DNA of 63,339 nucleotides, counting the filler, from Folioceros fuciformis (Eukaryota): NCBI GenBank assembly GCA_049999805.1. It is 5 parts of 4 records of this genome, joined end to end, with 100 filler letters (N's around TTAATTAATTAA, not from the genome) between each part and the next. Parts side by side here need not be neighbours in the genome. Positions count along the whole stretch, not along the records: positions 58,681 to 63,339 come from JBNGIO010006390.1; 4 more parts are not named here. One strand, 5' to 3'. This document shows, in pieces, positions 5,401 to 63,339 of the stretch; position 1 is the first letter of the stretch, and every line of letters starts with the position of its first letter. The notes beneath the pieces are model-generated. The model ran no database searches. It saw only the letters and a list, made by a program, of their open reading frames with translations, and was not told the DNA's origin. The translations under genes and the position numbers were made by a program.

Positions 5401-6838
5401 CGACATTGATGGAATGTGTGGGACCCACTTGAGCTGAAAGTTTGTATAGCCCATCTTCTAGTATGCCTATGCAGATGGCATGTGACTTATTGGAGGTGTA
5501 TGAAATAAGACAACTATCTGCATAAAGTGTGACTTGCATAGTATGTGCATGACATAAACTAGCGGCAGAGACTAGATTTTTACACATGGCTGGTACATGA
5601 AGGACATGACGTAAGTGAAGAGTCTGACCTGTGGAACATCTGAGGACAACTGAACCTGCACCAGCTATTGGGAGGTTGTGATCATCACCCAAGAGGACAG
5701 TTTGGTGTCCTGTGGTTGGGGAATATGACTCAAAGGAGTCTTTGTCATGACAGATGTGTGAGGTAGCTCCACTATCAAGGTACCAGAATTGATTTGTAGA
5801 CTGGGAGGATGCCAGGCATACTGTAAGGGCAGAAGGAGTTGAAGAGGATGGTTTCTTCACAGCAACATGTGCGCCAGGTGAGGCCTCTTTCCTAGGCTCA
5901 CCATTTTTCTTCCTTCTGCAGTCCTTCTCCATGTGATTTGGGATTCTGCACCAATTGCAAATAATTCCAGTCTTCTTATTACCTCTTGCAGGTGTAGAAG
6001 AAGACGGAGAAGCTCCACTGTAGAAGCTGGATGAAGTGGCAGGCTTAGTGGAAGGAGGTTCGTTTGCGCGGCCTCGACCGCGACCCCTTCCTCTGCCTCT
6101 TCCTGTGTACATCACTTGCTGCCGGCTAGTTCGTGAGTCTTGACGTCGACTGGACTCCTCCTGTATCAATGCTCCGATCAACTCATTTATACTTATGTCC
6201 AAGGTATCATGCTTGTCCATATTTTTCTGGGCTGTTCTCAATACAGCATTTTGAGTTGTCACAAATGATCTATAGGAGGATGGAAGAGAGGATAATAATG
6301 CAACAAAGCATGTTAACTCGGAGAGCTTGGAGTTGGAAGCAGCTTCAAGTTGGGATCTTGCCATTCGAAAAGCACTAATATGGTGTTCAATGGTGTCAGA
6401 TTCCCTCATCTTAAGGTTGTGGAAGTTACGGGTAGCAGTCATCAGACTCATAACATCCTTGGAGGAGTATAATTGTGCGAGGTGATCCCACATTTCCTTG
6501 GAGGATCCTGCCTCGCTGATTTGCCGTACCATATGGAGAGAGAGACCACTGATAATCATATCCTGGGCTCTCTCATCCTTCGCATCCCAGGTGCGTTTTT
6601 CGTCAGCACCCCATACTGGGCGCTCTAAGGCTCCGCTGACAATATCCCATAGGTCACGGTTACGCAATACTCCCCTCATTCGCAGGCGCCAGACGTCGTA
6701 GTCCTTGCCATTGAATCTGTCCTTTTCTTTGAAGCTGTCTCCATAATTATTGACAACCATTGATTTGGTCTCAATGGGGTCCTTGTTGATGTTGACTTCT
6801 TCGTCAAGTTGCTCTCCCTCATCTTCCCGACTAGCCAT
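2453..6838 (-). CDS. Copia Gag-Pol polyprotein, 1461 aa
   Basis: Zinc knuckle CNWCRIPNHMEKDC; protease WYLDSGAT; GAG-pre-integrase LWHCRLGH; integrase LRSDNGGEF/PQQNGVAE; RT YKARLVARG, LLYVDD; RNase H YADADYAG, SDSQGA, ADLFTK. No stops. Confidence 0.97.
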   Translation of the reverse strand: MASREDEGEQLDEEVNINKDPIETKSMVVNNYGDSFKEKDRFNGKDYDVWRLRMRGVLRNRDLWDIVSGALERPVWGADEKRTWDAKDERAQDMIISGLSLHMVRQISEAGSSKEMWDHLAQLYSSKDVMSLMTATRNFHNLKMRESDTIEHHISAFRMARSQLEAASNSKLSELTCFVALLSSLPSSYRSFVTTQNAVLRTAQKNMDKHDTLDISINELIGALIQEESSRRQDSRTSRQQVMYTGRGRGRGRGRGRANEPPSTKPATSSSFYSGASPSSSTPARGNKKTGIICNWCRIPNHMEKDCRRKKNGEPRKEASPGAHVAVKKPSSSTPSALTVCLASSQSTNQFWYLDSGATSHICHDKDSFESYSPTTGHQTVLLGDDHNLPIAGAGSVVLRCSTGQTLHLRHVLHVPAMCKNLVSAASLCHAHTMQVTLYADSCLISYTSNKSHAICIGILEDGLYKLSAQVGPTHSINVASPNSAPPSHTMLWHCRLGHPNSQKLVQMSKVGNLYRTPCLSQIQHLPWCETCVITKRHQAPFQNISPQRATSPLELVHTDICGPISTPSFSGSRYFLTFIDDYSRFTLTYILNHKGDTYHFFKDYMAWAERLTEKKLKTLRSDNGGEFTSKQFEDFCRAQGIAQQLTVVYTPQQNGVAENKNLRLQEITGCLLTQANLPKVYWAEALLTATYLMNRLPTSAVQGMTPYEAFTGKKPSIDHLRIFGSPAYVFIPKALRKKLDPKAARYTFIGYTEGIKGYKLFDPSTKKLLYARSVTFHEHSLFCPSVGDLMPPHPSSTDAEPECSSFDTSDYIMDFPVPALRVPSDGPIMQEEEELAPFLRPDSPSLDTEEPQHFEDIPDDPDEPECDPEYLVEDPPQESTLLEDVEDEQPAQRYNLRTRPTIPGPAGWKEPPLGYLATSEAVYQATIDPEEPTTLKQAFSSPEKDLWKAAVDSEYDSLIKNSTWELVKPPKGRKIVTSKWVFKIKRKGDGSIERYKARLVARGFTQIPGLDYVPWATYAPVAKFASLRMIFALSAQYDLELHMMDVKTAYLHGHLQEEIYMKQPEGYEVKGKEDLVCKLIKCIYGLKQSGKEWNTVIHIKLIKRGFRQSKADSCMYILISGKEIIYLLLYVDDVFMASSSSSLLAEIKAWLRSHFEMTDLGELTYALGVNIMRDRSRKTLSVFQTKYIKESLIKFGLEDAKPAPTPFASGIRLTLEMSPKTDADKLQMSAVPYRHAVGTLIYLSNFTRPDIAFEVSACSQFLENPGREHWASVKRIFRYLKGTMNTGLVYQHTPSMNKPILTAYADADYAGDPDTRRSVSGYVLMLCKAPISWSSKKQTTIALSSTESEYRVLTSVAKDIVWSRLALSELNHTQDNPTPLYSDSQGAIALARNPVFHSRTKHIAVEYHYIRETLGNKTIDISYIQTQDNAADLFTKSLGRELHIKHMKTLGILDTKSIPT

Positions 6839-6850
6839 GGCAGGTGATGT

Positions 6851-7631: not shown

Positions 7632-7731
7632 NNNNNNNNNNNNNNNNNNNNNNNNNNNNNNNNNNNNNNNNNNNNTTAATTAATTAANNNNNNNNNNNNN
7701 NNNNNNNNNNNNNNNNNNNNNNNNNNNNNNN
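7632..7731. other. Artificial contig spacer (N-TTAATTAATTAA-N)
   Basis: 100-nt N run with a six-frame stop linker at 7676-7687. Confidence 0.97.
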
Positions 7732-22515: not shown

Positions 22516-22615
22516 NNNNNNNNNNNNNNNNNNNNNNNNNNNNNNNNNNNNNNNNNNNNNNNNNNNNNNNNNNNNNNNNNNNNNNNNNNNNNNNNNNNNN
22601 NNNNNNNNNNNNNNN
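22516..22615. other. Scaffold gap (100 N)
   Basis: N run without linker. Confidence 0.97.
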
Positions 22616-26905: not shown

Positions 26906-29500
26906 CTAGGATATAGTCTTCTTTCTCTTAGCTCTGCCCCTCCCCGCTCCACCGCTAGCACCCTTCAGTTTCTTGATTTCTGCCTGCAAATCCTGGTTGG
27001 TGCTTTTCTCTGTATTGATCACATTCCCCAAATGGTTGACGACCTCTTTTAGGGTTGCTTCCCGGCCTGGCGTGAAGGGCTTGCTGCTTTCTGCAGCAAA
27101 GTTCCATAGAGTTGTGACTGGGTACCGACCGCTGGCATTGTAGTGCTGGATTTCCATCAACGCAGTGGCTACCCCATTGAAGGCCCTTTCACCGAATTTA
27201 GCCTTCAGCTGCTTCAACAGGGGATCGTCGGGATCTACTTCCTCCTCAAACTGCACGATGCAACAGAGTCACAAAAGCCTATCGACTCAGCTCCACGCGC
27301 AGTGTTCCCTTCATACAAGACGAGAAAACGAAGGAGATCCTCACCTCCGTTCGATCCGAGTTCTTGTAGACCTTCTTGTATGGAAACCAGTCGTGCTTCT
27401 TTATCATCTCATCCCATTCTGAGCATATTTTGGCAAGTTTGGCTCGCCAGTCAGGATGGTTGAAATGAGCTTCACCTACGTCCTTCCAGCAGCTGTCGTC
27501 GATCTCACCGCACCTCTTGACTCCAATACCCGCCTGGGCGTCACCGCCCAAATTTTGGAGCAACTATACAGAACAGCCGAAACACGCTTACGCCGCGGGC
27601 ACCCTAATGGAACACGCCAGCCTCACCTCAAATGATATTTTGGTTTCACAGACAGACACATGTAAGGTCTTACCGACACTGCTGCTTTCTTCGCACCCTC
27701 AAGTTCGTCTACGGCCTTACGATGGGACAAAGCCAGGTTGTTAACCATATCCAATGCCCCGTCCTTCTCTTCTTCGAGATCCTTTAGTTTCTCCTCCAAC
27801 TCTGCAATTTTCCCAGTTGATAGCTCCGTGCCTCCAACTTTCAGTTTTTCTGTTTCTATGGTCTCCTGTATGTGCTGAGCTTCGATCTCCATCTGTTGCT
27901 GCTTTGCAAGTTGCAGCTTTTTTTGCTGAATTTCGTTCTCCAAATTCCTCTGCTCATTCTGCAGTTTTCGCAAGGCAAAATTCCCTATCAAGTCACTCCG
28001 AAAACCTTGTGCCCGGAAACCTCAAGAATTGCAATTTGAGGAAGCATCACTAACCTCGTGCTTCTCTATTAAGCTTCGCTCCTCATCACGGTACCTGATC
28101 CGAACTTCCACTTCTTTCCTCACAGTTTCCAGTTGCCTCATATTCTGTCCAAGCCAAGCCTGGATTAGTGGGGGTACTCGAAACCCCCAAGCACCCTCCC
28201 TCCCCGGCTCGACGGCACTGAAACTTCATTCGATTGAAAAAAAAAAGAAAACCAAAAACAAATAAAGGAGAACGCTTCACTTCTTCTCTTTCAAGTTCGA
28301 GCCGCTTCTTCTCAGCTTCATTCTGGCTCTCTTTGATGCTCATGTCAGAAGAGCGCTGTTGCAAGGTTGCCATTAGTTGTTCCAACTCATGACCTCGTCG
28401 CTTCATCTCTTGATTGTGCAACTCCATGGCCTTTTGAGATTCAGATCTCAGGGTTTCCCTTTCTGTCACAAATTTCTGACTTTTGGCAAGAGAGGCAGGA
28501 AGTGTAGGGTGGAAACACGAAACCATGACAAAAGAAAGCTTAGAGGTTCCATACCTTGTCTATGCTTCTCTTCCAGCAGCCGCATTTCCAGTTCCGCTTT
28601 CTTACTCGCCTGCTCGGCAGCCTCCATCCTGTTAGCCATTTTGAACTTGTCGGTATCTGCCTTTGCCAGCAACTGCTGTTGATTCTGGATGGTTTCATGC
28701 AGCTGCTTCTGCAACTGGTCGCTAGTCCTCATTTTTTCTTCCACCAGCTGATTCATGGTCTTCAAATTATGCTTCTCCCGCAAAAACTCCCCGACCTTCC
28801 CTTTACCATTGTAGTCTTCTTGGCCGGCCATCCAGCCATAGAGGTCCGTCCCCTGCCGATGCGTCCCCTTGTTCTCAAACCAATCTTGCCTTCCCCGATG
28901 TTTCTCAAGAAAACTCCTCTCAAACAGGCGACAATCCCCATATCCCTCCATATCTCGCTTAAAGATAAGAGCCGCCATCCCCAGAGGCCCGTGGAAAGCC
29001 CAGAACACCTTCACGTGCTCGGGATTGAACGCTTCAAACTGCTGCTTCAGCTCTCCGGGCCCGGGGCTGATCCTTCTGCCATCGGGGCCGACAGTCCCAA
29101 CATTGTGGATGAGCCCCACCCACGGATGCACCACCTGGTGCTCGGCCTGAGCCCGCTTGGGCGCGGCCTGCTCCAATTTCACAAGCCGGGGCGCGGCTGG
29201 TGCCGCAAACTCCTTCAGGTCCTCCCGAAGATACTTGTGCAGCGCTCGGTGCTGCCCTCCCTGCTCGTTCCCACGCTTTCCTCGACCGACGCCGTCAGCA
29301 TGCGCTAGCAGCTCATGGTACTTATAGTCCTGCTTCTTCTTGCTGACACAGAAAGGGCAGCGATACGTCCCGTCTCCATTAGGCACCGTATGCTTCCCAC
29401 TCTTCAACCCCTCGGTTGCTGCTTCCTCAAACTCGTCCATATCCACCTCATCTTCGTCTTGCTCTGACGCGGAGTCCATCTCGTAGTCCTCGATCTCCAT
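26906..29500 (-). CDS. IDN2/FDM-family RdDM protein (zf-XS, XS, coiled coil, XH), about 688 aa; exons 29500-28555, 28462-28281, 28144-28055, 27958-27674, 27563-27345, 27250-26906
   Basis: YRCPFCVSKKKQDYKYHELLAHA; VHPWVG; LYGWMA; IGVKRCGEID; CSEW...WFPYK; HYNASGRYPVTTLWNF...ATLKE; splice phases are consistent. Confidence 0.92.
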
Positions 29501-30717
29501 CCCCACCTCTTCTACCAGGAAGCTCCTTCCCCTCCAGAGACAAAACGCCACCACAGCACAGCACACCCGCAAGCTCAATTGCCACTAAAAGAAGCAAGAA
29601 CGGGCTCCGGCAAGCTGCAACAAGCAAAGCACATGCATTTGGAAAGAGAAACGCTACAAACGCAGCACAACAACACGAAACCGCCTCCAGCTTCCCAACC
29701 TTCGCAAACCAGCAACTGAAGCACTCAATTCCCGCAAGCGGCACAGCACAGCACACCACGAGTCCAATTCGCAGCGAAAAATCAACTCTCACCGAAGACA
29801 CGTACGAGTCGAAGAAGAAGAGTGTCCCGCACCAGGCAATTGCCCGCTCTGCAGCAGACCGTGCGCCCTCCCGCTGCCACGGTACAGAAGCACTGCAGTG
29901 CTGCAACGAATTCGCGAGACGTGCCGTTGAGACTCCGCCGAACCAAGCGAGAAGGGGAAAGGTTTCAAACGTTCCGTTCTGGCTTCATCCAACTCCCTGA
30001 AGCTCGAGGATTTGAGGCCAGGGGTGACCGGCTCGTCCCGTGCGCACCCGCTAATACAATAGGAACACGAAAATGTAAGCTTCTCAGCTAATACATGTCT
30101 ACGTCTACGATCAAGACGCGAGATGGAACATTCCTCACATTTGTTGCTTCACACCCTGTGCCTTTGGTGCACCAAGCACATGGACTGCATCAAAGCTCCC
30201 TGCTTTAAATTTGCATTAACTTAACTCTACATCCTAAAGAACATTCTGTAAGGATTCTACACAAGTATGTAAGATCATATGTTTTCTCCTTTCTCTTGAG
30301 TGAAGTTCTTCTCTTCCGTTCCACTTGGGCTCGGTGCAGTCTCGTTTGGAAAGAGAAAGGATTCTATTAAAGTTAACCGAGGACGGATTTCCGCCACTAT
30401 CGTCCAGACCGTCCAAGATATGAGTATGAATATACGCCCCACGGTGCCGGTGGCCGGTGGAGCGGGAGCCGGTCGCCCGCCAAGGAGTAGTCCAGTACTG
30501 GAATGCGCGGGGTGTTTAGTGCGCCACCAGCAGCTCATCATCAGGGCGTACGTCTGTAACAGATTGATGTGCGGGTGAAGGAGGACGGCACCCGCATTTG
30601 TGAACATGGATTATGACGATCGACGCCGGTGGTGATAGCGCGCACGACCCCTGGATGCGCTCAGTGGCTGCTGCGTGGCTCTCGTAGCGGTTTGGCTAGA
30701 GGAGGAGACGGGGCTGA

Positions 30718-33492: not shown

Positions 33493-33592
33493 NNNNNNNN
33501 NNNNNNNNNNNNNNNNNNNNNNNNNNNNNNNNNNNNTTAATTAATTAANNNNNNNNNNNNNNNNNNNNNNNNNNNNNNNNNNNNNNNNNNNN
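33493..33592. other. Artificial contig spacer
   Basis: N run with TTAATTAATTAA at 33537-33548. Confidence 0.97.
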
Positions 33593-44488: not shown

Positions 44489-47400
44489 ATGGAGAATCGG
44501 AGGAACTGGCCCTGGAGGAAGCGATCGAGCGATAAGCACTCTCACTCCATCGATTCTGAGTCCTCGTCTCTGGCACCGTCTATGGCACCCTCTCCTGCAC
44601 ATTCCCTGAGAGTTTATGACGAGCAGGTTTGGGGCGACCCTCCCGTCTTCTGCTTATCATCCGCCTTTGCTTTGCGTGGCTTGGCTTTGCGCTTGTTGGC
44701 GTTTAGGTGTGAGTTGGTGGAACCCCTCTAACATGGCCTCTCTCAACAGGATGGAGCCAAGTTTGGCGCCGATCCCCCACGGGTTTCCGAGGATGCAGTC
44801 GTGCAATGGCAGCAATCGGAGGAGAGGAACAGGAGTTTGAATGAGAGGCTGGCAGCGGCTCTTGCTGACATTACGGCGAAGGATAACCTTGTGAAGCAGC
44901 ACGCCAAGGTGGCGGAAGAGGCCGTGTCAGGTAAGGACGCACAGCGCCGAAGGTGACGGGCATTAGCATATCGTGTCGCGGTGGACGTGTCCTTCCTGTG
45001 TTTGAGAAGTGCTGTCTAAGAGCGTCCAGTTTTGATTTTGCAGGCTGGGAGAAAGCTGAAGCCGAAGCTGCTGCTTTGAAGCAGCAGTTGGAGTCGGTTC
45101 AACAGCAGAAGCTTGCCACCGAAGATCGGGTTTCGCACCTTGACGGAGCGCTGAAAGAGTGTATGCGACAACTCCGGCATGTGCGGGAGGAGCAAGAGAA
45201 CAAAGTACATGACTCCATTGTGAAGAAAACTCGAGAATTTGAAAAGCAACGGTCAGAGCTTGAGCTCAAGCTATCCGAGGTGGGACGTCAGCTCATTGAA
45301 GGGTCTGCGCAGGTTACGGCCATGTCCGCCGCTCTCCAGGAGAGGGCCAAGACCATCTCCGACCTCGGCGAGGCCAAGAGTCGGGCGGAAGCGGAGAATA
45401 GAGTTCTCCATGTGCGACTCGAGTCTTTGGAGAAGGAGAACGCGAGCCTCAAGTACGAGCTGCATGTTGTGGCCAAGGAGATCGACATTCGAAATGAGGA
45501 GCGAGACATCAGCAAGAAATCGGCTGAAGCTGCCAACAAGAGCCAGCTGGAAAGCGTGAAGAAGATCGCCAAACTGGAGGCTGAGTGCCAGAGGCTGCGA
45601 CTTCTGGTGCGCAAGAGACTTCCTGGCCCGGCAGCTTTAGCGCAGATGAAGTTGGAAGTTGATTCTCTGGGGCGAGAGACGGGGGATCAGCCCAGGAGGA
45701 GGAAGTCATTGGGCGGCAGGAGCCCCCAGTCGCCTGTTGCGCCCGATCACGACGTGGGAGTGGAAAATGGGACGAAGGAGGTGGAAGTCCTCACGGACAG
45801 GCTTTCTTCGCTGGAGGAGGAAAATACCATGCTGAAGGAAGCGTTGTCCAGGAGGAATGGGGAGCTCCAAGCTGCAAGGCTCATGTGCGCCAGGACCGCA
45901 AGCAAACTGTCAAATGCTGAAGACCAGATGGACAGTCTTCGTAGCCCCAATGGCTTGCCCCCTTCTTCTCCGAGCAGCATTCTGGATCACTCGAAGTTGA
46001 TGGCGCCCTCAAGAACGTCGACTGTCATTGATAGGGCAAGTAGTCGTGCCTCCAACTCTGGAGAGAGTGCCACCGAGGAGGAGCTCAACACTGCTGACGC
46101 ATGGGCTTCAGCTCTCATCGCCGAGCTTGCTCAGTTCAAGAAGGGTAGTGCCAAAAAGGAGAAGGGGCTCGGGTCTGTTAGTTCCATCAACTTTGACCTC
46201 ATGGATGACTTCGCTGAGATGGAAAGGCTAGCTATGGCTGGCGGGAAGGATAGGGAGGAGGTGGCCGAGTCGGAAGCTGTCAGTGACAAGAACGGTTGTG
46301 CACCCAGCGAGTCCAGTGTGGCCGTAAATGGTGGTGAAAAGACTGCTCTAGAGGAAGCACTCTCCAAGCGTGGCCTTGAGCTTCAGCAAGCTAACCAGTT
46401 GTGTAGGGAATTGAGCGGAAAGTTGACTGTGGCCGAGGAGCAGCTTGCCTCCTTGCAGACCCGGAATGCGGCTAATGAGAAACAGATCATTTGTCTTCAG
46501 GAGAGACTAGATATCATTTTTGAGGCTCAGGCGGATGGCGCGAACATGGCTCAGGTGTTGCATGAAGTCCGCCAGGCAGCTGCTGGAGACGGTAATGCGA
46601 AGGGTTTTGGCATCGTTCTCAAAGAGGGCCCAGCGGGAACCAGGAGAGAACTGGGGTACTGGGCCCATAATTCAGTATTTGAGGATGGAGGCAAGATTGG
46701 AATTGAGCTGGCACTGGCTGTCCGGAAGATTGCAAGTCTTGTTGAATCACTCTCAGAGGCAACAGGGGCGGAACACGAGATTCTTCCCCAGCATACTAGT
46801 TCTGCTGATCCTTCATCTCCTTATGAGGCTCTCCGGCCTAGCAAAACCTGGGCCAACGCTCAGTTGAACTCGTGCATAGTATCTTTCTTTGCCGAGGCAA
46901 ACAATCTACTGGAGGGCAGGTCAGATCTTACCGCGCTCCTTTCACGCCTAGCAGCAGCCCTTGCAGGGATAGTAGATCATGGCCTAAGGGCAACGCTAGA
47001 GAAGAAGTGGGGCAATGATTTTCCTGAAGCTGACAACAAGGTGAGTTACCACCAGCGCACATTCTATGTTCTCCCTCACGAGCTGAATGTCTTTAACCAA
47101 CCGGCACCAGACCGTAATTTTTTTCGGATGGTAACATTTAATTTTTTGTTTTTTGTGTCCGATTTTTTTTCTGTCAATGCAGCTCGTCTCCAGGTTGGAG
47201 GAGGACCTTCGCAACTTGCGGTTGGAGAAGGCCGCACTAGAGTCTCACATGCGTGCAGAGTTGGGCAGGCTCCCCAGTTTGGAAGCCGAAGTCTCCCAGC
47301 TGAAAGTGGAAAGGGAAGATATGGAGAGATGCCTTGATGAAACAACCGAAAATGCAGAAAGGCTAAAGGCTCAGGTTCAGGAGGCTGAGCGCCTCCTCGC

Positions 47401-50391: not shown

Positions 50392-50491
50392 NNNNNNNNN
50401 NNNNNNNNNNNNNNNNNNNNNNNNNNNNNNNNNNNTTAATTAATTAANNNNNNNNNNNNNNNNNNNNNNNNNNNNNNNNNNNNNNNNNNNN
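50392..50491. other. Artificial contig spacer
   Basis: N run with TTAATTAATTAA. Confidence 0.97.
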
Positions 50492-50525: not shown

Positions 50526-53500
50526 ATGTTGCAGGTAGACTCAGATAGTGATTCCGATTTGGACCAATTTTCTTGGATGTACTTTGATCAATCACTTCCT
50601 GTCACTCCTGTTATTCCAGTACATGTTCAGCCCGTCATGGCATCCATTCCAGTTGCCTCCCCATCTACATCTGTTGGATCCCCTTATTCAGGTGAGTTTA
50701 AGGAGAAAGATAGATTTGACGGGAGACCCATCAGGTTTGAGAGTTGGAAGGCAAGAATGAAAGCTAATCTGGATGCCAGGGACGTGTGGGAGTATGTGGA
50801 TGGATCCATACCCAATCCATTGAAGGTACCTAGCACAACAATACCACAACCAACAGCTGATGAGATAGCAAAGTGGAAGAAAGGCAACAAAGTAGCTTTT
50901 GCTATTCTATTATCCGAACTGGATGAGTCGACTGTAACTGAAGTGGACACCTTGGAAACAGCTGAAGCTGTCTAGAAGCAACTGTCTGATACTTACCAGG
51001 TGCAAAATGTTTGTACGATGATCAATGCTCGTAATAATTTTCACAGTCTTAGGTTGAAGGAGGGGGAACCGGTTGGAGCTCATATCACTAAGTTGAGGCA
51101 CCTACGAGCACAGCTTGCCGCTTTAGGTACCAAGATCACTGAGGTGGAGATGACTGCTCAACTCTTAGCCAGCCTACCTTCGTCCTATCAAACATTTATC
51201 TCCAGTCAGAATGCCACCTTGCGCGACGCATATAAGGTTGCAGCAAGTGGCCAACCGTCGTCATTAAATCTCAATGAAATCATAGGAGCTCTCTTGCAAG
51301 AAGAATAAAGCCACCTATGTACCCATTCAGCTCCTCGCCTGCGAGGGGAGAAAGTCTTGTTTGCCTCCAAAGGAAAAGGACAGTGGAAAGGAAAAGACAA
51401 GGGCAAGAAGACCCCCACATCTTCTACCTCCTCTTCAACCTTTCCGACAAAACGCAGTGGTAAATGTAATTGGTGTCAGATTCCCGGTCACTGGGAACGT
51501 GACTGCAGGAAAAAGAAGGCAGGTGAGCCTAAGAAGGAGCCTAGATCTGAAGCTCACATTACATCTAAGGAGAACAAGACCTCTGGATCTCAGCATAAGA
51601 GTGGGAGTACTGTACTTACAGTCTGCCTGACCTCTTATAAGGATCAGTCTTCCTCTTGGTTCGTGGACTCTGGCGCAACAGCTCATGTCTGCAACAACCG
51701 AGAACTTTTCTCCACCCTACACAAACAGCAATCACCTCAACTAGTTTATGTAGGTGATGCTCGTGGTGTGGGTTAAAGGAACTGGTTCAGTTAACATACC
51801 TCTTTCTGGTGGATCAGTCTGGATGATGTACTTTTTGTCCCTAAGATGAGTAAGAATCTTCTATCCATTAGAGCTCTTGTTCAGAGTAAGAAGTATGGCT
51901 TTAAGTTTGAGAACAGGAAGTGTTATATCTACCAGCAATCTCTTCCAGAAGTCTTTGTTGCTAAGGCTGTACTTATCAATGATTTGTATCAGTTAGTAAC
52001 AATTCATCACTCCAAAGTGAGGGCTCTTGTGGCTGCCAGTAATTTACAGGCAAGTCTTTGGCATGCGCGTTTAGGACATGTTAACAGATCTAAGTTAGAC
52101 CTCATGTCCTCGTCTAACTGTTACAGAGAACAGCTTCCTCCTTGCTTTAAGCATCTTGAGGCATGTTGCTCCTGCATATTATCCAAGCAAAAAGAGTTAC
52201 CATTCAAGAATAAAACAGCAACCAGAGCCAAATCTATCTTGGAGTTGATTCATGCAGATATAGCTGGTAAACTCCCTGTGAAATCTCTGGGCGGCGCTGA
52301 ATATTATCTCACGTTGACTGATGATTTTTCACGCTACACTCGGACTATTCCTCTTAAGCTTAAGAGTGACGTGTTTGATACCATTGCCTCCTGGATTCCA
52401 ATGGTACAACGTCAAACAGGAAAATTAGTAAAGTGCTTCCGTACAGATAACGGAGGTGAATTTACAGGCAACAGGTTTGATCATCTTTTCCAGCAGTTTG
52501 GCATCATAAGGCAGCTATTTGTTCCATACACTCAGCAACAGAATGGTGTTGCTGAGCGTAAGAACCAAACTCTAATGGGAATGACACGAAGCATGCTTTC
52601 GTGGTCATCCTTACCTAAAAGCTTCTGGGCTGAAGCTATTGTTGCTGCCACATATATTTTGAATCGCGTGGTTACTGCAGCTCTCCCAGGTCAAACTCCT
52701 TATGAAGCCTTTTGGGGTAGGAAACCCAGTCTTCTGCACCTTAGAGTATTTGGATCTCCAGCATTTGCTTATATTCCTGAACCCAAGAGGGGGAAGTTAG
52801 ATGCTAGGGCTAAACCCCTCATTTTCTTGGGTTACTCAGAACAGTCCAAAGCTTACAAATTGTTCGACCCTCAAACTTCAAAAATTACTCTCTCTTGTAG
52901 TGTTACCTTTAGAGAGTTGTCATCTCCTAAGCCAGCTTTGGATTCTCATCCTGTAGACTCGTTTGTGGACCCCGATCAGTCTGTAAATGCCCCTCCATAC
53001 ACCTATCCAATGTCAGATGGTGAGTCCTCTTCACCACAGGAATTTGTAGGTGGAGATGCTACTAATCAGGATGCTACAGATGACTCTGGAATTCAACCTG
53101 GAACTCAACAAGCTAATTTAACTGTTGGTGCTGATGAAGATGATGTTGTTCCGGATTTCTATGGACAGAATGTCGATGATGACCAGTCATTGAGTGATTC
53201 TGACCAGTCGGAGGATTCTGATCAGGCTACTTCTGAAAGTGATTTCACACAACAAAGTGAAAGTGAGATTCAGGCATAGACTACTAGATATCCCACTCGT
53301 GAAAGACGAACAAGGGAAAACTAGATCAACCCACCCTATCAAGCTGAAGATTTTCGCAAGCCAGCCGCACATGTGTCTGATCTTCATGTTCCAGAAGTTC
53401 GACCAGATCCTCAGTCATACTTGGAGGCTCTAAACGGACCTGATGGAGAACACTNNNNNNNNNNNNNNNNNNNNNNNNNNNNNNNNNNNNNNNNNNNNNN

Positions 53501-54410
53501 NNNNNNNNNNNNNNNNNNNNNNNNNNNNNNNNNNNNNNNNNNNNNNNNNNNNNNAGAACACTGGCGCAAATCAATAGATGATGAATATAACAACTTGATC
53601 AAAAATAACACTTGGAGTTTAGTTGATTTACCACTTGGCAGAAAACCTATTAGCTGCAAGTGGGTATTTAAAACTAAACTGAATTCTAATGACACTATAG
53701 CACGTTACAAGTCCAAGCTGATTGCTAGGGGTTTCAGCCAAATTCCAGGAATTGACTTTGGTGATACTTTTTCCCCGGTTGTGAAGCCACCCTCAGTTCG
53801 TATCTTACTTGCAATGGCCGCAGAGTTTGACTTAGAAGTCCACCAGATGGACGTATGTACTGCCTTCCTTCATGGTGAGCTTGAAGAAACTCTGTTTATG
53901 GATCAACCTGAGGGCTTTGTTAGCAAGAAGTGGCCTACGAAGGTTTGTAAACTCCTTAAAACAATATATGGGCTAAAGCAAAGCCCACGACCTTGGTATA
54001 AGCGTATTGTTAAGTACCTTCAGACACTGGATCAAAGTCCAGCTGACACAAATGTGTTCTACCTCGCCACTAGTGCCTTTTTTGTTATCTTGGCTTTGTA
54101 TGTTGATGATTGCGTCCTGCTGAGCAATGATATAGGGCAGTTAAACAAAGTTAAAGGACATGCTTTGGCAGGAGTTCGAAATGTCAGACCAAGGTGAACT
54201 TTAGTTGTGCCTCGGTATTCAGATTCTACGTAATCGATAGGTAGGGCAGATAATCTTACACCAAACGAAGTATATGAAGGAGATCCTTAGGCGTTTCAAT
54301 CTTGATGAGGCTCGTCCTGTCTCCACACCTTCAGCAGTTGGGGAGAAGCTCACACGAAATATGTCACCCCAGCTGTCTGCAGACATTGAGGACATGGCTT
54401 CTGTGCCGTA
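50526..54410 (+). mobile_element. Degenerate Ty1/copia gag-pol related to the element in contig 1; breaks off before RNase H
   Basis: FKEKDRFDG, LLASLPSSY, CNWCQIPGHWERDC, WFVDSGAT, FRTDNGGEF, LALYVDD; several stops and frameshifts. Confidence 0.92.
53455..53554. other. Scaffold gap (100 N), probably spurious
   Basis: agaacact appears on both sides of the gap. Confidence 0.85.
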
Positions 54411-55316
54411 CCCCATTTTGTTGTTGGGTATACGGAACAATGAGCTGTCTGACTATCCCTTGTGTTGTAAGGATCTGTTCAAAAAGAGCATGAACAAACT
54501 CAGTGCCATTGTCATATCGCAGGCAGCGCAAAAGTCGACCAGTTTGCTAATGAATCATAGTCACCCATTCCTGGAATATGGGGAAAGTATCAGACTTTGC
54601 CTTCATAGGGTAAGTCCAGGAATAGCGTCTATAGTCATCGGTAAGCGTAAGGTAATAAAATGCTCCTCCCATAGAGGAAACATGTATCTTGCCCGAAATG
54701 TTAGCATGCACTAGGTCTAGGACGTTCATAGTGCGATAGGTAGGAGCAAAGGGCAACTCCTTTTGCTTAGCAACCACACAAGCATCGCACACAGGGAGTT
54801 CGATGAAGCATTTGGGCAAGGGTTCATGGTAGCAGTCCATAGTAGACATCTTGACCAGCTTCTGTTGATTAACATGGCCAAGCCTTGCGTGCCAAAGCTG
54901 TGCTTGAACAGCTTGAGATTTGTCTGCCAGGTGCAGACTAGATGGACGGCAGCAAAACACATGGAGCTTGTACAAGTCATTAATGCGCACCTCCTTTGCC
55001 ACTACACTGGTGGGTGAGCCTTTAATGGTAAGAGCACAGCCGTTAGAAGTAAACAGTAGGTTAAAGCGGCATAAACGCATCAACTGACTTATTGATATTA
55101 AATGCTTTGCCATTGTAGGTACATACAGGACATGATCGAGGGTGAGCACATTGTTATCAGCAAGTCAAAACGAACAAGTGCCAATTCCAAGTATCATGAG
55201 GTCGGTATGAGTAAGCTCATCACCTAGCAGCACTCTCTCTGCTACACTAGCTGATGTGAAGTTACTCATTAAAGTCTTGTCCCTGCATATGTGCAAGGTA
55301 GCTCCTGAATCGAGGT
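54411..55316 (-). mobile_element. Inverted copia fragment (protease to integrase core)
   Basis: LDSGATLHIC, LWHARLGH, YYLTLTDDY, RQLIVPYTQQQNG. Confidence 0.88.
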
Positions 55317-58300
55317 TGTGGCGTGATTTCTTGCACCCAAGAACCACCAAAGGGCCACACATCCCCTTATTTTCGTTGCAGTCTTATGATTCGCTCCCAA
55401 GGGAGTGAACTAGTGCCAAGGAACACTACCTATCACACTTCTACCTATCAGCCGGTCTATAGGCCTGACCATACACTCACAACAAAAAGGCTAGAAGCCT
55501 AGCCTATCCCCAAATAAGCTCACACAACTCACACTCCTGATCTTCAGTCCTTTAGCTCTTCATGATTCCCACTTCAGTCCTTTCTCCTTCACTTCAGCCC
55601 TTCATGATTCCCACTTTAGTCCCTTCCTCTTCACTTCAGCCCTCCACCCTGCACTTCAGCACACACTCCTGCACTTCAGCAACTCACACTTCACTTCTAT
55701 GCATTTCACTCCAACTCTTCCTCTCTTTGCTTCAGCTATCCCCTGGAAATTGGAACACAATGGCTTCACTCCTTGCAGCCTTCAAGTATAGTGTGAATAC
55801 TAGGACTGGATAGCCCTCCAGGCTCACGGTCCTGTCCCTTCACTTCAGCCAGCCTGCGAATCATTCAGCCCTTGCGGATCCGGCCACACGGATCCTGACA
55901 GTCTTGGGATCTCCACGTTCCCCTAGTGGCAAGGGAAATCAGGACCTCGGTTCAGTCTCAACCGGCTCAGCGCCCTAAGCCAGGAGTTCTGCACACAAAG
56001 TTCGGGGACATCACACCGTAGACCGCCCCTCCTCAATACAGCCATTGAAGAGGTGCCGCCACCCAGCCTGTCCAGGACCTGATGCCATTGCCCGCATCTG
56101 GCTGGTCTGCCTCTGCAGCCAGCCCGCCGTCACCTAGCGATCCAGCCAGGTGCCTTCTTGCTAGAACCCACCTAGCTAGTCTCTAGCCGTCATGGCCTGC
56201 CTCCTGGATCTGATACTGCCGCAGCCTCGGAGCGGCCTGCCGATCCGACACCACCGCTCTGCATTCGGCTGGATCCACCCGGGACCTCGGCCCAAACCCA
56301 ACCTACCCCCGAGCTGACACAGCTTGCTTCAATCCTACCCTGACCTGCCATACCCCGGAGCCCCCTGCCGGCCAGGACCCGGCTGCTGCTACGCCGCTTG
56401 CCAACCTCCAGATCCAGCCCCGGTCTCGACCAGCTTGGATCCGCCCAGCCAGGCTAGCCAGGCAGCCAGCCTGTTGGCTGGCTGCTCCTTTGCGTTCCAG
56501 GCTGCCTGTATGTTGGCGGCACCGAACCACCAGCCCCCCCCACTGGCTAGCCCGTCTACCAAACTCGAATCGCCTGCAGCTCGCCCGCACCCCCTGCAGT
56601 GGCCCCGACTAGCCGATTAGCCAGAACGCCACCTGGCTCCAGCCGCCAACGCCTTCCCCTCGACAATGACCAACTCAACTGCCCAGCTCGGCTCCAGCCC
56701 GCGCTCCAACAGCCCGCCATCACTTGTCGGTTCTAAGCCAGCCTGCCCTGTTCACCTGCAGCAGCTTGGCTTGCTTTAGATCGGCCAGCCCTGCCTGCTG
56801 GCTTCTCGCCATGGCCCAGCTCTTTCCCCTATGGTGAGCACAGAAAACATGCTACAGCTTTTCGCAAGAACCACGAAACCGACTGCACCACAGGCAGCCC
56901 CGTAGCTTCCACCGACCCACGCTGGCTGCCCAGATCTACCCCAGCACCATCTAACCGATACCAGCCGATGGCGGCACCTACCTGGAACCTGGATCCATCG
57001 TCTCCCCGGCCCGCTTGGTGCGGCCTGACCCCAGTTGCTGCCGATCCCTTGCTAGCTGCCCGTTCGCGGCCTACACCGACCTGGATCGGCCATCGACGGC
57101 CAGCTCCAAAGTCGCCATGGCCCGGCCTGGTTGTCCCCTCTACAGCAGCCGCCGATCTGGCACCTGCTGTGGTCGAGTCTACCTTTTGCCACCGCCGCCA
57201 CCGCCGCCACTGTCGCCACCGCCGCCACTGCCCGGTCTCGGCTTCGGCCCGGATCTGCTCGTCTCGTGGATCCTCCCCCGTTAAGGAGCTCCCCCGGGCT
57301 GCTGCCATCGCCGCCATCTACCTAAGCTAGCTAGCCACTCCAATCAGCTGGCCTGCTTGCTGGCTGGCTTTCCCTCGAGCTCCCAGACTATCTGGCTCTA
57401 GTCGTGAATAACCCCAGCTAGCCCGACCCTAGGGCTGCCTCAGGTCCATCCAGGCCAGCTTGGATGCGCCGCCACCACCTGCCTTGCTAGCCACCCATGT
57501 GTACCGAGGCCACACACCAACCTTGTTGGCTTCCGGGTCCAGCACCCTGCTCAGCTGCTATGTCTGGACCCGAACGGGACTGCTCATGCCTTGCCTAGCC
57601 ACCTAACCTGCCCACTGCTCCAGTAACAGCCCTAGAGACGTGTAACCCCACGGCCATCTTCGGCCTCGCTGCCCTCCAGACTCGGACTGACCCGCCTCCC
57701 AGCGTCGCCTAGGCCTGACTAGACCGGGCTAGGTTGCGGCCTAAGCTTCCCAACAGCCGCCAACCTGGCTGCCTGCTCCTGGGTCCTCGGCCCCAAGTAC
57801 CTCGATCTCCATCTCCCGCTTCTTCCAGCAACAGCCAGAGGACCCCCGGCTCGCCTTCCACGACATCCTAGGGTGTCCTATTCCTCCGTTACCTTATCCT
57901 GAGGAACCAGAGCCTGTGTCCTATCTACCACACAACCTACCTACCTATCGACTCACCATAAATCTAGCTACTATTCTAACCTAATCTCCCAACCTTTCCT
58001 CTACAGCACTCACTCACGAATCAAAAAAAAGAAAAAAGAAAACCTATTATTTCCCAGGGGTCTGTTCAGCATGTGGAGTCCACAGAGGTACCAACTGTCA
58101 GAGTCACTTATGGATGTGGAGAGACAAACAATCATAACCACAGGGTGCTTAGAAGTGCTAGCCGAAGTAGGCCAATCCTTGGTGACAAAGTGTGCCTCAG
58201 CCTGCTTAAAGAGCGTCTCGGCTTTCCGTGGTTCACCAGATTTCTTCTTTCTGCATTCCCTTTCCCAGTGACCCTGAGTGTTTGTTTATCAGCGGAAGGC

Positions 58301-58580: not shown

Positions 58581-58680
58581 NNNNNNNNNNNNNNNNNNNN
58601 NNNNNNNNNNNNNNNNNNNNNNNNTTAATTAATTAANNNNNNNNNNNNNNNNNNNNNNNNNNNNNNNNNNNNNNNNNNNN
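58581..58680. other. Artificial contig spacer
   Basis: N run with TTAATTAATTAA. Confidence 0.97.
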
Positions 58681-59891
58681 GTGTTCATGCTATCAAAAAC
58701 CTGGCGTGCATCTTTCATTCGGCCACATTTTGCATACATGTCCACCAAGCAGCTGTTAACAAACAAGTCAGTACGGAAGCCACTGCGCAACACGTCGCGG
58801 TGCACTGTTCTGCCAGATTCTAAGTCGGCAGCAAATGCACAAGCTTGAAGGGCGGCTACAAAGACATAACCATTCGCCTTCACTTCTGACCTACGCATTT
58901 CATGGTACAGTTGTATGGCCTCCTTCGGCTTCCCGTGCTTAGCATGTGCAGAGATTACGGAAAACCACATGAAGACATTCGGTTTCCCTACCCTGTTGAA
59001 CACATCCATCGCCTCCTTTAGCCTACCTCCACATGCATACATGCGCAAGATATGGTTCCCCAAATATGCATTCGACTCGTACCCAAGTTTGACTGTGAGA
59101 TCGTGAACTCGTCGCCCCACCACCAAATCCTTCTTAGCTGTACAGAGTTTTAACACTGTGTAAAACAGAGACTGAGAAACGCCAGAGTCTGACTGCACCA
59201 GAGATTCCAGGGCTCCAACGGCCTCAGAAAGCTTCCCCTGACGACATAACATGCTCACGGTTGCAGCAGTTACGACGCCCGTTTCCAATTCTGCACGCCT
59301 GCCAGATCCACGCTTATACAGAGAGCTGCACTCGAAAGAAGAGATTCCATGGCCCATTGGATGTGGAAGTGCTGGGTTTCTTACACTGCTACCGCCGGAG
59401 CCCATTTCTCCACCTGTACGCCTTCCAGGTTCAGGATTATCTGGAGGGCTGGAGGTGGAAGGAGCGGAACCGTGATCCATCTGCATATCCAAGGAGACGA
59501 GCTTGTCATCAACCCATGCTGGCTTAAACCTGTTGTCCAACCACAGCACCTCGCCAGAACCCTTACGCCGGAAGTCAGGGGAACGAGAGCTCTTCTTGTC
59601 TCGTCTGTTATCCCACCACAGGGTAGGGTCCAGAAAAAGTTGTTGCCACAAGAGCTCCTGCTGCTCCTGGCAACTACCAGCATCGTCGGAAAACCCGTCC
59701 CTGCCCACACACGTTCTAGATTTCGGAGGTGGAAGTGCTTGGCTCCTGACACTGCTGCACCTGGAGCCTTTGTTTGCAAAGGGTTCACTCCCGAAACTGA
59801 GGTGAGCGGGGGTTCCTGGTAGAGTCCTTGTACACACACCAATTCCAATTTGTTGGGTCGACAACAGGTCCGGTTGCCATACTGTGGCCAT
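58681..59891 (-). CDS. 5' part of a PLS-class PPR gene with a transit-peptide-like N-terminus and an OSB-type PDF motif; cut by the gap
   Basis: LWQQLFLDPTLWWDNRRDKKSSRSPDFRRKGSGEVLWLDNRFKPAWV, then L-S-P-L-S PPR motifs. Confidence 0.9.
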
Positions 59892-60780
59892 CGTTCAGGG
59901 ACCGCTGTAGGAAAATGACTCTAACAAAAGTCTCGTCTAGGCAGACGCCCGGCCGGGCACACTGTACATACGTATGTATGACCACAGGAGCCTGAAGGGG
60001 TGAACCGTGAGCCGTGGGGTGAGCCGTCCTATAACACCTGTGGGCGAGCTGTCGGACTGGTGCTTCAGACCACTCGACCATGTGACGGATATTAGGGAGT
60101 AACTTTATGTTCAGTTTAGATATACAAAACATTTAATTGCTTGTCAGCCGCCATAACAAAAACAAGAATTTCATTTAAGGCTTGTCAACGTTAAGTGCAT
60201 GCCATCCTACATACCCCAAGATATTTTAATCGAGCCATGGTATCACGGTTTCTGTTTCTCATCACGCACTTGGGACAGTTGGTATCTTGAAGGCCGAAAC
60301 GGCAACGCGGTCCTGGATGTGACTAGACGAGGAATTGCCGTTAAGTAAAAGTCTAGATATGTGCGTCGCACTGCCTGGATTGTGATTGGGGTTGCTACTT
60401 TCACCTGCTTCCTGTCAACTGCCAAGCTCTTGTGCCTTGATACTCCTCGGCATACTGGCTACCAATGTGCTTACACCTGCACGGTACAGCATCATATACA
60501 TACGGCAGTATTGGTAAGGAAACGGAGTTGTGGAGACCCTGCAAAGCACGTGTACAACGTGCTCATCATGAAGAGTGTGCAAGGGTGCAGGAAAAACATG
60601 CTAGGCTTGCTACAAAGTTGTGAAGTACCTAGTCCCACAGAGCGAAATGCCCTCAAGTGCACGATCATACAATTCTTCTTCTTCTTCGTGTTAGCGGAAC
60701 AATGGTACTTGCCACCAAGAAGAATCCGTACACCACTAGGAATCCGCCTGGCACTGGCTACACTCACTTCTTCATTGTTC

Positions 60781-63339
60781 TCATGGTCGACCCTTACAAC
60801 TGCAACAACCATTTGCGAATCGATGCACACGGTACCCATCCCTCACAACAATGTCTCTCTGCTCAAGCCTCGACATGATCGCCGTCGAGCTGTGGCAATC
60901 ACTGCACATGCGTAGATTCTTGGTTACCATCAGAGGTGTCCCATTCGGAGTGTTCAACAGACCAAACGCCAGAGCTAGCTTCTCAGCATGCCCACAAAGC
61001 ACGTCTTCCTTTTCCTTCTCACTCAGTGGCTTCAACACCAACTTTGTGTCAGGTACGTGGCCTCCTTCCTGCTTCACACGCGCATTCGTGCTCTCTACCT
61101 TAAGCGCAATATCCTTTCTCCTGTCTCCCACCAGAAATCTGTGTACCTCCTTATTCACCTCAATGCTTGCCACTGCTGGCTTCTTCTTAGCTCCTGCTGC
61201 CTTTCTCTGTGTTTCAATCCTGTCTACATCGGTCCACCTACCTGCATCTGCATAGGCATTGGCCATGAGAACATAGGCCGTTGCCTTCTGGGGGTCCAGC
61301 CTAACAATGCTTTCAAAACACCACACAGCCCTCTCTAGATCTCCGTGACTTTTGCAGGCATTCAACAAAGATGTCAAACACACCACTTCACTTTGGCCCT
61401 CACATGATAATAGCATCCTCTCTGCCTCATCTAATTCGCCAGCACGCCCAAGAAGATCAATCATGCAGGCGTGATGCTCAACAGTAGGTATGACACCATG
61501 CTGTTCAGCCATGGAATCAAAGAGCTTGCGACCCTCCTGGACCAGACCCCCATGACTGCATGCTACTAGAAGGCAAGTAAAAGTAGCATCGTCAGGATGA
61601 ACACCGGCAGCTGACATCTCCTCAAAACAAGCTAGCGCGTTGCGACCTTCATCACAAGCACCATACCCCGCAATCAGGGCATTCCATGTAACCACATTCT
61701 TTGTGGCCATGCTGTCAAAAACCTGGCGTGCATCTTCCATCTCACCACATTTTGCGTACATGTCCACGAGGCAGGTGCCCACCACTACCTCATCCAGCAG
61801 ACCTCTGTTCACAATCTGTGAGTGGAGCTCCCTGCCCTTCAGCAAAGCACCAGTGCTTCCACACGCCTTCAGAAGGCAAGCAAAAGTAACACAGTCGGCC
61901 AAAACGACGCCTGCCTCCTCCATCTCTCCATACACAACAAGTGCCTCGTGGCCGAGTCCTTGCTGTGCATATCCAGCAATCAGGGCATTCCATGTCACCA
62001 CATCTTTAGTGGCCATGCTGTCGAAAACGTGGCGCGCATCTTCCACCTCACCACATTTCGCATACATGTCCACCAGGCAGGTTCCCACCACGACATTATC
62101 CAGAAGTTCTCTTTCGACAATCTTCGAGTGAAGGTCCCTGCCCTTCTGCAAGGCACCAGTGCTTGCACACGCCTTCAGAAGGCAAGCAAAAGTAACATCA
62201 TCAGCCAAAACGAGGCCTGCCTCCTCCATCTCTCCATACACAACAAGGGCCTGTTGGCCGAGTCCTTGCTGCGCAAACCCAGCAATCAGGGTATTCCATG
62301 TCACCACATCCTTCGACGCCATCCTGTCAAAAACCTGGCGTGCATATTCCACCTCACCACATTTTGCATACATGTCCACCAGGCAGGTTTCCACGACTAT
62401 ATTATCCAGCACACCTCTGTTGACAATCTGTGAGTGCAGCTCCCTGCCCTTCTGCAAGGCACCACTGCTTCCACACGCCTTCAGAACGCAAGCAAAAGTA
62501 ACACAGTCAGCCAATACGAGGCCTGCCTGCTCCATCTGCCCATACACAACAAGGGCCTCTTGGCCGAGTCCTTGCTGTGCATACCCAGCAATCAGAGCAT
62601 TCCATGTTACCACATCCTTCGAGGCCATCCCGTCAAAAACCTGCCGTGCATATTCCACCTCACCACATTTTGCATACATGTCCACCAGGCAGGTCCCCAC
62701 CACTACATTATCCTGCAGTTCTCTCTTGATAATCTGTGAGTGAAGCTCCCTGCCTTTGTGCAACGCACCAGTGCTTGCACACGCCTTCAAAAGGCAGGCA
62801 AAAGTAACACGGTCAGCCACCACGAGGCCCGCCTCCTCCATTTGTCCATACACAACAAGTGCCTCTTGGCCGAGTCCTTGCTGTGCATACCCAGCGATCA
62901 GGGCATTCCATGTCACCACATTCTTTGTGTTCATGCTATCAAAAACCTGGCGTGCATCTTTCATTCGGCCACATTTTGCATACATGTCCACCAAGCAGCT
63001 GTTAACAAACAAGTCAGTACGGAAGCCACTGCGCAACACGTCGCGGTGCACTGTTCTGCCAGATTCTAAGTCGGCAGCAAATGCACAAGCTTGAAGGGCG
63101 GCTACAAAGACATAACCATTCGCCTTCACTTCTGACCTACGCATTTCATGGTACAGTTGTATGGCCTCCTTCGGCTTCCCGTGCTTAGCATGTGCAGAGA
63201 TTACGGAAAACCACATGAAGACATTCGGTTTCCCTACCCTGTTGAACACATCCATCGCCTCCTTTAGCCTACCTCCACATGCATACATGCGCAAGATATG
63301 GTTCCCCAAATATGCATTCGACTCGTACCCAAGTTTGAC
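60781..63339 (-). CDS. PLS-class PPR-E-DYW protein, DYW:KP / GRP-type (candidate U-to-C editing factor); 5' end outside the window
   Basis: P-L-S triplets, P2-L2-S2, E1/E2, KKKPAVASIEV, CGHAEKLA, MCSDCH, C-terminus CSCKGRP. Confidence 0.95.
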   Translation of the reverse strand, partial: VKLGYESNAYLGNHILRMYACGGRLKEAMDVFNRVGKPNVFMWFSVISAHAKHGKPKEAIQLYHEMRRSEVKANGYVFVAALQACAFAADLESGRTVHRDVLRSGFRTDLFVNSCLVDMYAKCGRMKDARQVFDSMNTKNVVTWNALIAGYAQQGLGQEALVVYGQMEEAGLVVADRVTFACLLKACASTGALHKGRELHSQIIKRELQDNVVVGTCLVDMYAKCGEVEYARQVFDGMASKDVVTWNALIAGYAQQGLGQEALVVYGQMEQAGLVLADCVTFACVLKACGSSGALQKGRELHSQIVNRGVLDNIVVETCLVDMYAKCGEVEYARQVFDRMASKDVVTWNTLIAGFAQQGLGQQALVVYGEMEEAGLVLADDVTFACLLKACASTGALQKGRDLHSKIVERELLDNVVVGTCLVDMYAKCGEVEDARHVFDSMATKDVVTWNALIAGYAQQGLGHEALVVYGEMEEAGVVLADCVTFACLLKACGSTGALLKGRELHSQIVNRGLLDEVVVGTCLVDMYAKCGEMEDARQVFDSMATKNVVTWNALIAGYGACDEGRNALACFEEMSAAGVHPDDATFTCLLVACSHGGLVQEGRKLFDSMAEQHGVIPTVEHHACMIDLLGRAGELDEAERMLLSCEGQSEVVCLTSLLNACKSHGDLERAVWCFESIVRLDPQKATAYVLMANAYADAGRWTDVDRIETQRKAAGAKKKPAVASIEVNKEVHRFLVGDRRKDIALKVESTNARVKQEGGHVPDTKLVLKPLSEKEKEDVLCGHAEKLALAFGLLNTPNGTPLMVTKNLRMCSDCHSSTAIMSRLEQRDIVVRDGYRVHRFANGCCSCKGRP
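62927..63339. repeat. 413-bp direct repeat of 58681-59093 (offset 4246)
   Basis: The two sequences read identical by eye. Confidence 0.95.

Follow-up and report, generated by a model that had tools for sequence, protein, structure and literature searches.

RNA-editing factors of the PPR family are described as proteins composed of a presequence, a PPR array, E motifs and a DYW domain. In PLS-type editing factors the N-terminal repeats point toward the 5' end of the RNA and the DYW domain works close to the footprint's 3' end, and E-type editing factors recruit the deaminase in trans. To our knowledge, the accessory domains recorded in PPR proteins (SMR, the PRORP nuclease, LAGLIDADG and others) do not include the PDF motif of OSB proteins.

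Two described systems come closest to the protein reported here. The first is formed by the OSB proteins, which, as the accessible accounts present them, have a central SSB-like OB fold and one to several PDF motifs at the C-terminus. In the available text of two reviews, ssDNA binding is the only activity that has been assigned experimentally to the PDF motif (PMC6963530, PMC4166229): the PDF motif of AtOSB1 suffices for ssDNA binding (PMC6963530), and OSB1 and OSB2 prefer ssDNA over dsDNA or RNA (PMC4166229). The same text reports that AtOSB2 is tetrameric (PMC6963530). The second system is the GRP subgroup of DYW:KP proteins that exists in hornworts (PMC9478123), whose members are candidate U-to-C editing factors. 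DYW:KP domains are 132 or 133 aa long and depend on an essential Lys88 (PMC11845758), and their M92 corresponds to V95 of DYW:PG domains (PMC9478123). According to the available parts of these papers, U-to-C editing has been shown for designer KP proteins alone (PMC9478123, PMC11845758), and the accessible descriptions of hornwort DYW:KP proteins mention neither a PDF motif nor any other N-terminal nucleic-acid-binding domain (PMC13386178, PMC9478123, PMC11845758).

Here we describe a PPR locus that has features of both systems. In the literature (searchable full texts) we found no description of a PDF motif in a PPR protein, and one review treats the two separately. Neither the OSB proteins nor the PDF motif are mentioned in the available text of a 2026 survey of editing factors (PMC13386178) or of the A. 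angustus genome paper (PMC7027989). A 2026 OSB survey, as far as its accessible text tells, required an OB fold and a PDF motif together (PMC13393729) and would therefore have missed PDF-PPR proteins. Judged from the comparisons presented below, the PDF-PPR protein is a real, conserved domain combination of which the searchable full texts yielded no published report.

The PDF motif of the 5' ORF

The window, by which we mean the whole 63,339-nt stretch of DNA that was analysed, contains a minus-strand ORF that starts with the ATG at 59891 and remains open for 403 codons until the N run at 58680. It passes in a single, uninterrupted frame, with no N inside, from the ATG through the PDF motif into PPR repeats. 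An in-frame TGA lies two codons upstream of the ATG, and the next in-frame Met after M1 is residue 136, downstream of the PDF motif. Thus, no start other than M1 would include the motif. The predicted protein begins with a Ser/Thr/Gly/Pro-rich presequence (residues 1-77; 59661-59891, minus strand), which is probably an organelle transit peptide and whose residues 1-69 have pLDDT values below 50. It is followed by the 58-aa PDF motif (residues 78-135; 59487-59660, minus strand), defined by phmmer, profile and AlphaFold, and by a low-complexity Ser/Gly/Pro-rich linker (residues 136-197; 59301-59486, minus strand), in which pLDDT values are below 50 for residues 140-197. The first PPR repeats start at residue 198 and continue without a stop up to the contig end (58681-59300, minus strand; Pfam PPR 4e-18, PPR_2 5.2e-17). 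An initial annotation of this DNA had quoted a peptide that is identical to residues 81-127 of this ORF, and had placed a PDF motif ahead of PLS-type PPR repeats. ORF analysis and Pfam agree with this arrangement, the two elements being in the same frame of one intron-free ORF. A gene-model artefact that joins an OSB exon to a PPR gene was considered and is ruled out by the single intron-free ORF in uninterrupted sequence. Pfam has no match over residues 78-135; its matches in the 5' protein are to PPR families alone, all of them beyond residue 228.

The identity of the motif was examined by direct comparison. A phmmer search with the 58-aa piece encoded by 59487-59660 (minus strand) against 1.84 billion (1.84e9) representative proteins gave 592 matches at E<=1e-3, 129 at E<=1e-10 and 14 at E<=1e-30, and many of the 592 matched proteins have several matched stretches. 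The matches include clusters from Populus, Drosera and Bidens that are named 'protein OSB1, mitochondrial-like' by NCBI. A profile built from 383 motifs of 140 non-PPR phmmer matches, with the motif of the window left out, scores 79.7 bits against the latter over all 58 positions, which is as high as the motifs of the OSB proteins. When the whole window is scanned with the profile in six frames, a single PDF copy is found (73.4 bits), the runner-up scoring -2.8 bits. All 11 columns that are invariant in the alignment of PDF-PPR proteins are present in the motif, whose conserved residues are mostly aromatic. On these matches and scores the motif is a genuine OSB-type PDF, as the initial annotation had proposed; the absence of a significant profile match to OSB PDF motifs, which it had named as a reason to abandon the proposal, was not what the search returned.

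The window protein and the OSB proteins thus share, at a highly significant level of similarity, a PDF motif of about 50 aa with the conserved residues W..WWDNR..K....PDF.(H)K.....LW.....P.WV. Unlike in OSB proteins, the motif is single and N-terminal and is followed by a PPR array, and there is no SSB domain: neither half of the probable joined gene described below has an SSB match in Pfam at E<=1. Thus, the joined protein is not an OSB, and the PDF module alone is common to both. Among the non-PPR PDF proteins, 42 of 127 match Pfam SSB (PF00436). This is expected for OSB proteins, since their OB fold is poorly conserved according to the available text of the OSB survey (PMC13393729).

It could be argued that the PDF motif is an evolutionary relic, which lies in a cleaved presequence or is skipped by initiation at Met136 and has no role in the mature protein. 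Its position near the N-terminus, behind a transit-peptide-like stretch and ahead of that in-frame Met, would fit such a history. We consider it very improbable because every invariant residue of the motif is conserved. The OSB-like profile score also speaks against decay, and PPR-linked motifs that have been kept from lycophytes and ferns to this genome are hard to reconcile with neutrality.

AlphaFold2 modelling of a 78-aa piece containing the motif, based on an alignment of 55 rows, yields a mean pLDDT of 87.7 and a pTM of 0.72. The model consists of a helix (4-20), two strands (25-27 and 40-42) and a second helix (59-73; numbering of the 78-aa piece). In the AlphaFold model of the 402-aa 5' protein, the PDF region (71-138) and the PPR helices (from 198, pLDDT >90) are confident, in contrast to the disordered residues 1-69 and 140-197. 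Accordingly, the PDF is predicted to be an independent small module of helix, beta-hairpin and helix, tethered by a flexible stretch of some 60 residues. Foldseek finds no PDB entry that matches the PDF model at E<=1e-3, and phmmer of the motif against the PDB sequences returns nothing meaningful (best E 0.081). No solved structure in the PDB search resembles the model, and thus its fold offers no functional hint.

Proteins of the dinoflagellate Effrenium voratum have up to eight PDF-like stretches (E 2.2e-44); the motif is described as conserved in green plants only in the accessible text of one review (PMC4166229). PDF stretches also occur in a kinesin model of Coptis chinensis (three), in a Kingdonia protein (13) and in a Striga protein named 'Interactor of constitutive active ROPs 2' (three). 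The Coptis, Striga and Kingdonia combinations could reflect genuine fusions, or neighbouring genes merged during annotation.

The DYW:KP part and the probable join of the two halves

On the same strand, a second frame is open from the window end (63339-60781, minus strand); its product combines PLS repeats with E motifs and a DYW deaminase. The PLS array and the E1/E2 motifs that follow it occupy 61183-62926 (minus strand; Pfam PPR 3e-103; E_motif PF20431 1.9e-15, residues 665-727 of the 3' protein). Four tandem units of 306 nt (102 aa), with 87-89% identity between copies, lie within 61662-62879 (minus strand). We read 102 aa as the length of a P-L-S triplet, and the similarity of the copies thus indicates that the PPR array has been extended by recent internal duplication. 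The deaminase domain, including the stop codon, is encoded by 60781-61182 (minus strand; Pfam DYW_deaminase PF14432 1.6e-34). It is 133 aa long, with 'KP' at its start and 'GRP' at its end, and has a K at position 88, an M at position 92 and HAE...CSDCH at the zinc site (HxE...CxxCH). The hornwort GRP subgroup, with its designer representatives KP2 and KP3, is alike in all of these features: a PLS array and E motifs, and a 133-aa DYW domain with a KP start, HxE...CxxCH, K88, M92 and a GRP end. With Lys88, Met92 and a KP that replaces the PG box, the C-terminal domain fits a DYW:KP domain of the GRP hornwort subtype, an assignment made by comparison with the published descriptions as far as their text was available (PMC9478123, PMC11845758) and not by alignment to reference sequences. 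The downstream part was expected to carry E1/E2 motifs and a DYW:KP domain ending in GRP, and a downstream copy lacking DYW had been named as counter-evidence; the Pfam matches and the KP...GRP boundaries agree with the expectation.

Both halves lie on one contig of 4659 nt (58681-63339), which is separated from the preceding part of the window by a scaffolding linker, N44-TTAATTAATTAA-N44, at 58581-58680 that marks a contig boundary and not biology. Four such linkers (7632-7731, 33493-33592, 50392-50491 and 58581-58680) and two plain N100 gaps (22516-22615 and 53455-53554) are present in the window. The window therefore consists of separate contigs strung together, and being neighbours across a linker or gap is no evidence for linkage. 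The initial annotation had joined the halves through an identical overlap of 413 bp. Such an overlap exists: the stretch at the contig end, which is also the window end (62927-63339, minus strand), is identical to 58681-59093 at 413 of 413 positions, so that the contig has one copy at each of its two ends. The spacing of the two copies defines a repeat unit of 4246 nt. When the frame is joined across the overlap it comprises 1118 codons plus a stop, which reproduces the predicted 1118-aa protein exactly. On the coding strand, the order on the contig is the 3' part of the gene, a spacer of 889 nt from the stop codon of the DYW part to the ATG of the PDF part (59892-60780), and the 5' part, so that the 3' part lies upstream of the 5' part.

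The simplest interpretation of this layout is that a head-to-tail repeat of the 4246-nt unit has been collapsed, in which case each unit would hold the whole gene. From the identical contig ends we consider it quite likely, by a clear margin over even chances, that the two halves are one gene, and a link of the PDF to DYW:KP in one protein is probable. Alternatively, the two halves could have been joined wrongly, with the 5' half (PDF-PPR) and the 3' half (PLS-E-DYW:KP) coming from different, near-identical paralogues or tandem members. The PDF protein would then be of PLS or PLS-E type and lack a deaminase, like those of ferns and lycophytes. The order of the halves on the small contig is reversed and its ends show no more than identity, and the family has very many copies: short contigs by the thousand, from four sequencing runs, match the locus at 90% identity or more, which indicates a very large paralogous family. 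These public contigs are about 100-190 nt long, and none of them bridges the 413-nt overlap; the sole joint among the mapped contigs, from 62925 to 58681, merely repeats the sequence of the window itself. However, the identity of 413/413 is far above that between the internal repeats of the gene, the joined frame has no stop within its 1118 codons, and a collapsed tandem unit would be expected to leave a contig with identical ends. We regard a false join as unlikely, although it is the strongest of the competing accounts.

The mapped contigs also provide a lead on how widely paralogues carry the motif. In all four runs the summed depth in the bin covering the PDF (59533-59674) is above that of its neighbours, a depth that is not to be equated with copy number, and 20-102 contigs have a variant letter at one place in this bin. 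This hints that many paralogues share the PDF motif.

PDF-PPR proteins of lycophytes and ferns

PPR relatives were searched for by BLASTP of the PLS-E-DYW part against the best 150 of the 592 PDF matches. Ten of these 150 are PPR proteins with an N-terminal PDF motif, and the fusion is thus not confined to the window. They come from Diphasiastrum complanatum (two clusters), Selaginella moellendorffii, Adiantum capillus-veneris (two), Ceratopteris richardii, Pteridium aquilinum and three further assemblies, one of which has three PDFs. In the databases they are named as hypothetical or PPR proteins only. Five of the ten, 791-1371 aa in length and originating from ferns, lycophytes and one further assembly, were scanned with Pfam. 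All five have PPR matches and carry the PDF within their first 281 residues. A DYW domain was detected in none of the five (Pfam, E<=1e-5), and an E motif in one.

Thus, Selaginella XP_024517303, Diphasiastrum KAJ7570437, Adiantum KAI5076972 and Ceratopteris KAH7429238 resemble the window protein in having an N-terminal PDF, in one to three copies, before PLS repeats, and the PDFs of this lycophyte and fern group are the nearest relatives of the motif in the window. They differ from the joined protein in that the scanned members have no Pfam DYW match, and an E-motif match in a single case. The PDF is therefore not tied to DYW:KP, and the DYW:KP link is left without an outside parallel, a point that also counts in favour of a false join. 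Of the co-occurrence that the initial annotation had suggested searching for, the fusion of PDF to PPR proteins was recovered among the best matches, but not together with a DYW domain in the five that were scanned, and the notion that the fusion is special to DYW:KP proteins was not borne out.

A fragment from a metagenome, named 'pentatricopeptide repeat protein', and short proteins of Sphagnum jensenii look like further examples, with a PDF followed by the apparent start of a PPR motif. In Selaginella, the PDF-PPR proteins as annotated start only four residues before the PDF and have no presequence. Either their start is annotated too far downstream or their import is not of the usual kind.

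The relation between the motifs was analysed in two phylogenetic trees, which are weak because only 62 columns could be used. In a FastTree phylogeny of 386 PDF motifs, 15 of them PPR-linked, the PPR label requires 8 changes compared to 14.8 expected when labels are shuffled (0 of 500 shuffles reach so small a number). The five motifs closest to that of the window are all PPR-linked. A second tree was inferred by IQ-TREE from 79 motifs, comprising the 15 PPR-linked ones, four fragments and 60 randomly drawn from the 370 others. It places the window motif in a group of nine rows (SH-aLRT 89), consisting of eight PPR-linked motifs and one fragment. A single clade of all 19 PPR-linked motifs and fragments is not rejected by the AU test (p 0.76). 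These topologies are compatible with one ancient PDF-PPR fusion. The occurrence in this genome, in lycophytes and in ferns indicates that the combination as such is old and conserved.

Putative role of the PDF and other features of the window

The locus is best explained as a nuclear gene that would encode a PLS-class PPR protein of organelles in a land plant without seeds, and the GRP ending suggests a hornwort. Each 4246-nt unit would specify a 1118-aa protein, a candidate U-to-C editing factor made up of presequence, PDF, linker, PLS array, E1/E2 and DYW:KP(GRP). In the mature protein the N-terminus would carry one OSB-type PDF, about 60 disordered residues ahead of the PPR array. The PPR array would read the RNA target and DYW:KP would act on the base, and the PDF, on its flexible linker, could reach nucleic acid outside the PPR footprint. 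By analogy with the OSB proteins, it may serve as a sequence-unspecific clamp for single-stranded nucleic acid. Such a clamp could use the ssDNA of the nucleoid to hold the factor near nascent transcripts, or it could strengthen the binding to RNA on the 5' side of the PPR footprint. The OSB data favour ssDNA over RNA, yet the PDF is found here on a candidate RNA-editing factor. The single-strand clamp is the leading idea because ssDNA binding is the sole measured activity of a PDF. Taken as a whole, a joined PDF-PPR-DYW:KP gene whose PDF acts as a tethered single-strand nucleic-acid clamp is the reading we hold to be reasonably probable.

A different function would be that the PDF is translated and serves as a module for protein-protein contacts or oligomerisation, touching OSB or editosome components instead of binding nucleic acid. 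The tetramers formed by AtOSB2 (PMC6963530), as far as the accessible text describes them, would be in line with this. PLS-E proteins that have a PDF and lack DYW must recruit a deaminase in trans, and the mostly aromatic conserved residues could equally form a protein interface. On the other side stand the ssDNA binding assigned to the PDF by experiment and the lack of a known protein partner in the same partial sources. We rate a protein-protein role as improbable and keep to the clamp.

A more far-reaching version would be that an ancient OSB-PDF fusion, which arose before hornworts and vascular plants split, couples editing to nucleoid ssDNA, in hornworts on a DYW:KP enzyme, and that editing is partly co-transcriptional and DNA-anchored. 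We put this forward tentatively, as a rather doubtful extension. If it is true, transcription bubbles, R-loops or replication intermediates could be the anchors.

A conserved N-terminal PDF in this hornwort-like genome, in lycophytes and in ferns suggests a second, sequence-unspecific contact with nucleic acid, and the motif may physically link organellar DNA maintenance to RNA editing. Designer GRP-type U-to-C editors reach an efficiency of about 22-26% in E. coli according to the accessible text (PMC9478123). The PDF is a natural accessory domain and a possible lead for improving such editors.

Outside the contig with the PDF-PPR gene, the window contains an ORF for a filament-like plant protein (44935-47337, plus strand; PF05911, 1.1e-159) and an ORF with XS and zf-XS domains (28466-29584, minus strand), and it is therefore of plant nuclear origin. 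An ORF of 1465 aa for a Ty1/copia polyprotein with gag, integrase and RVT_2, which appears to be complete, is found at 2453-6850 (minus strand), and further copia-type fragments are present at 51795-53279 (plus strand) and 54547-55113 (minus strand). Finally, the G+C content of 56001-58000 is 0.63, compared to about 0.47 around it, and two overlapping Arg/Ala/Pro-rich ORFs lie on opposite strands within this G+C-rich stretch (56829-57317, minus strand; 56968-57330, plus strand).
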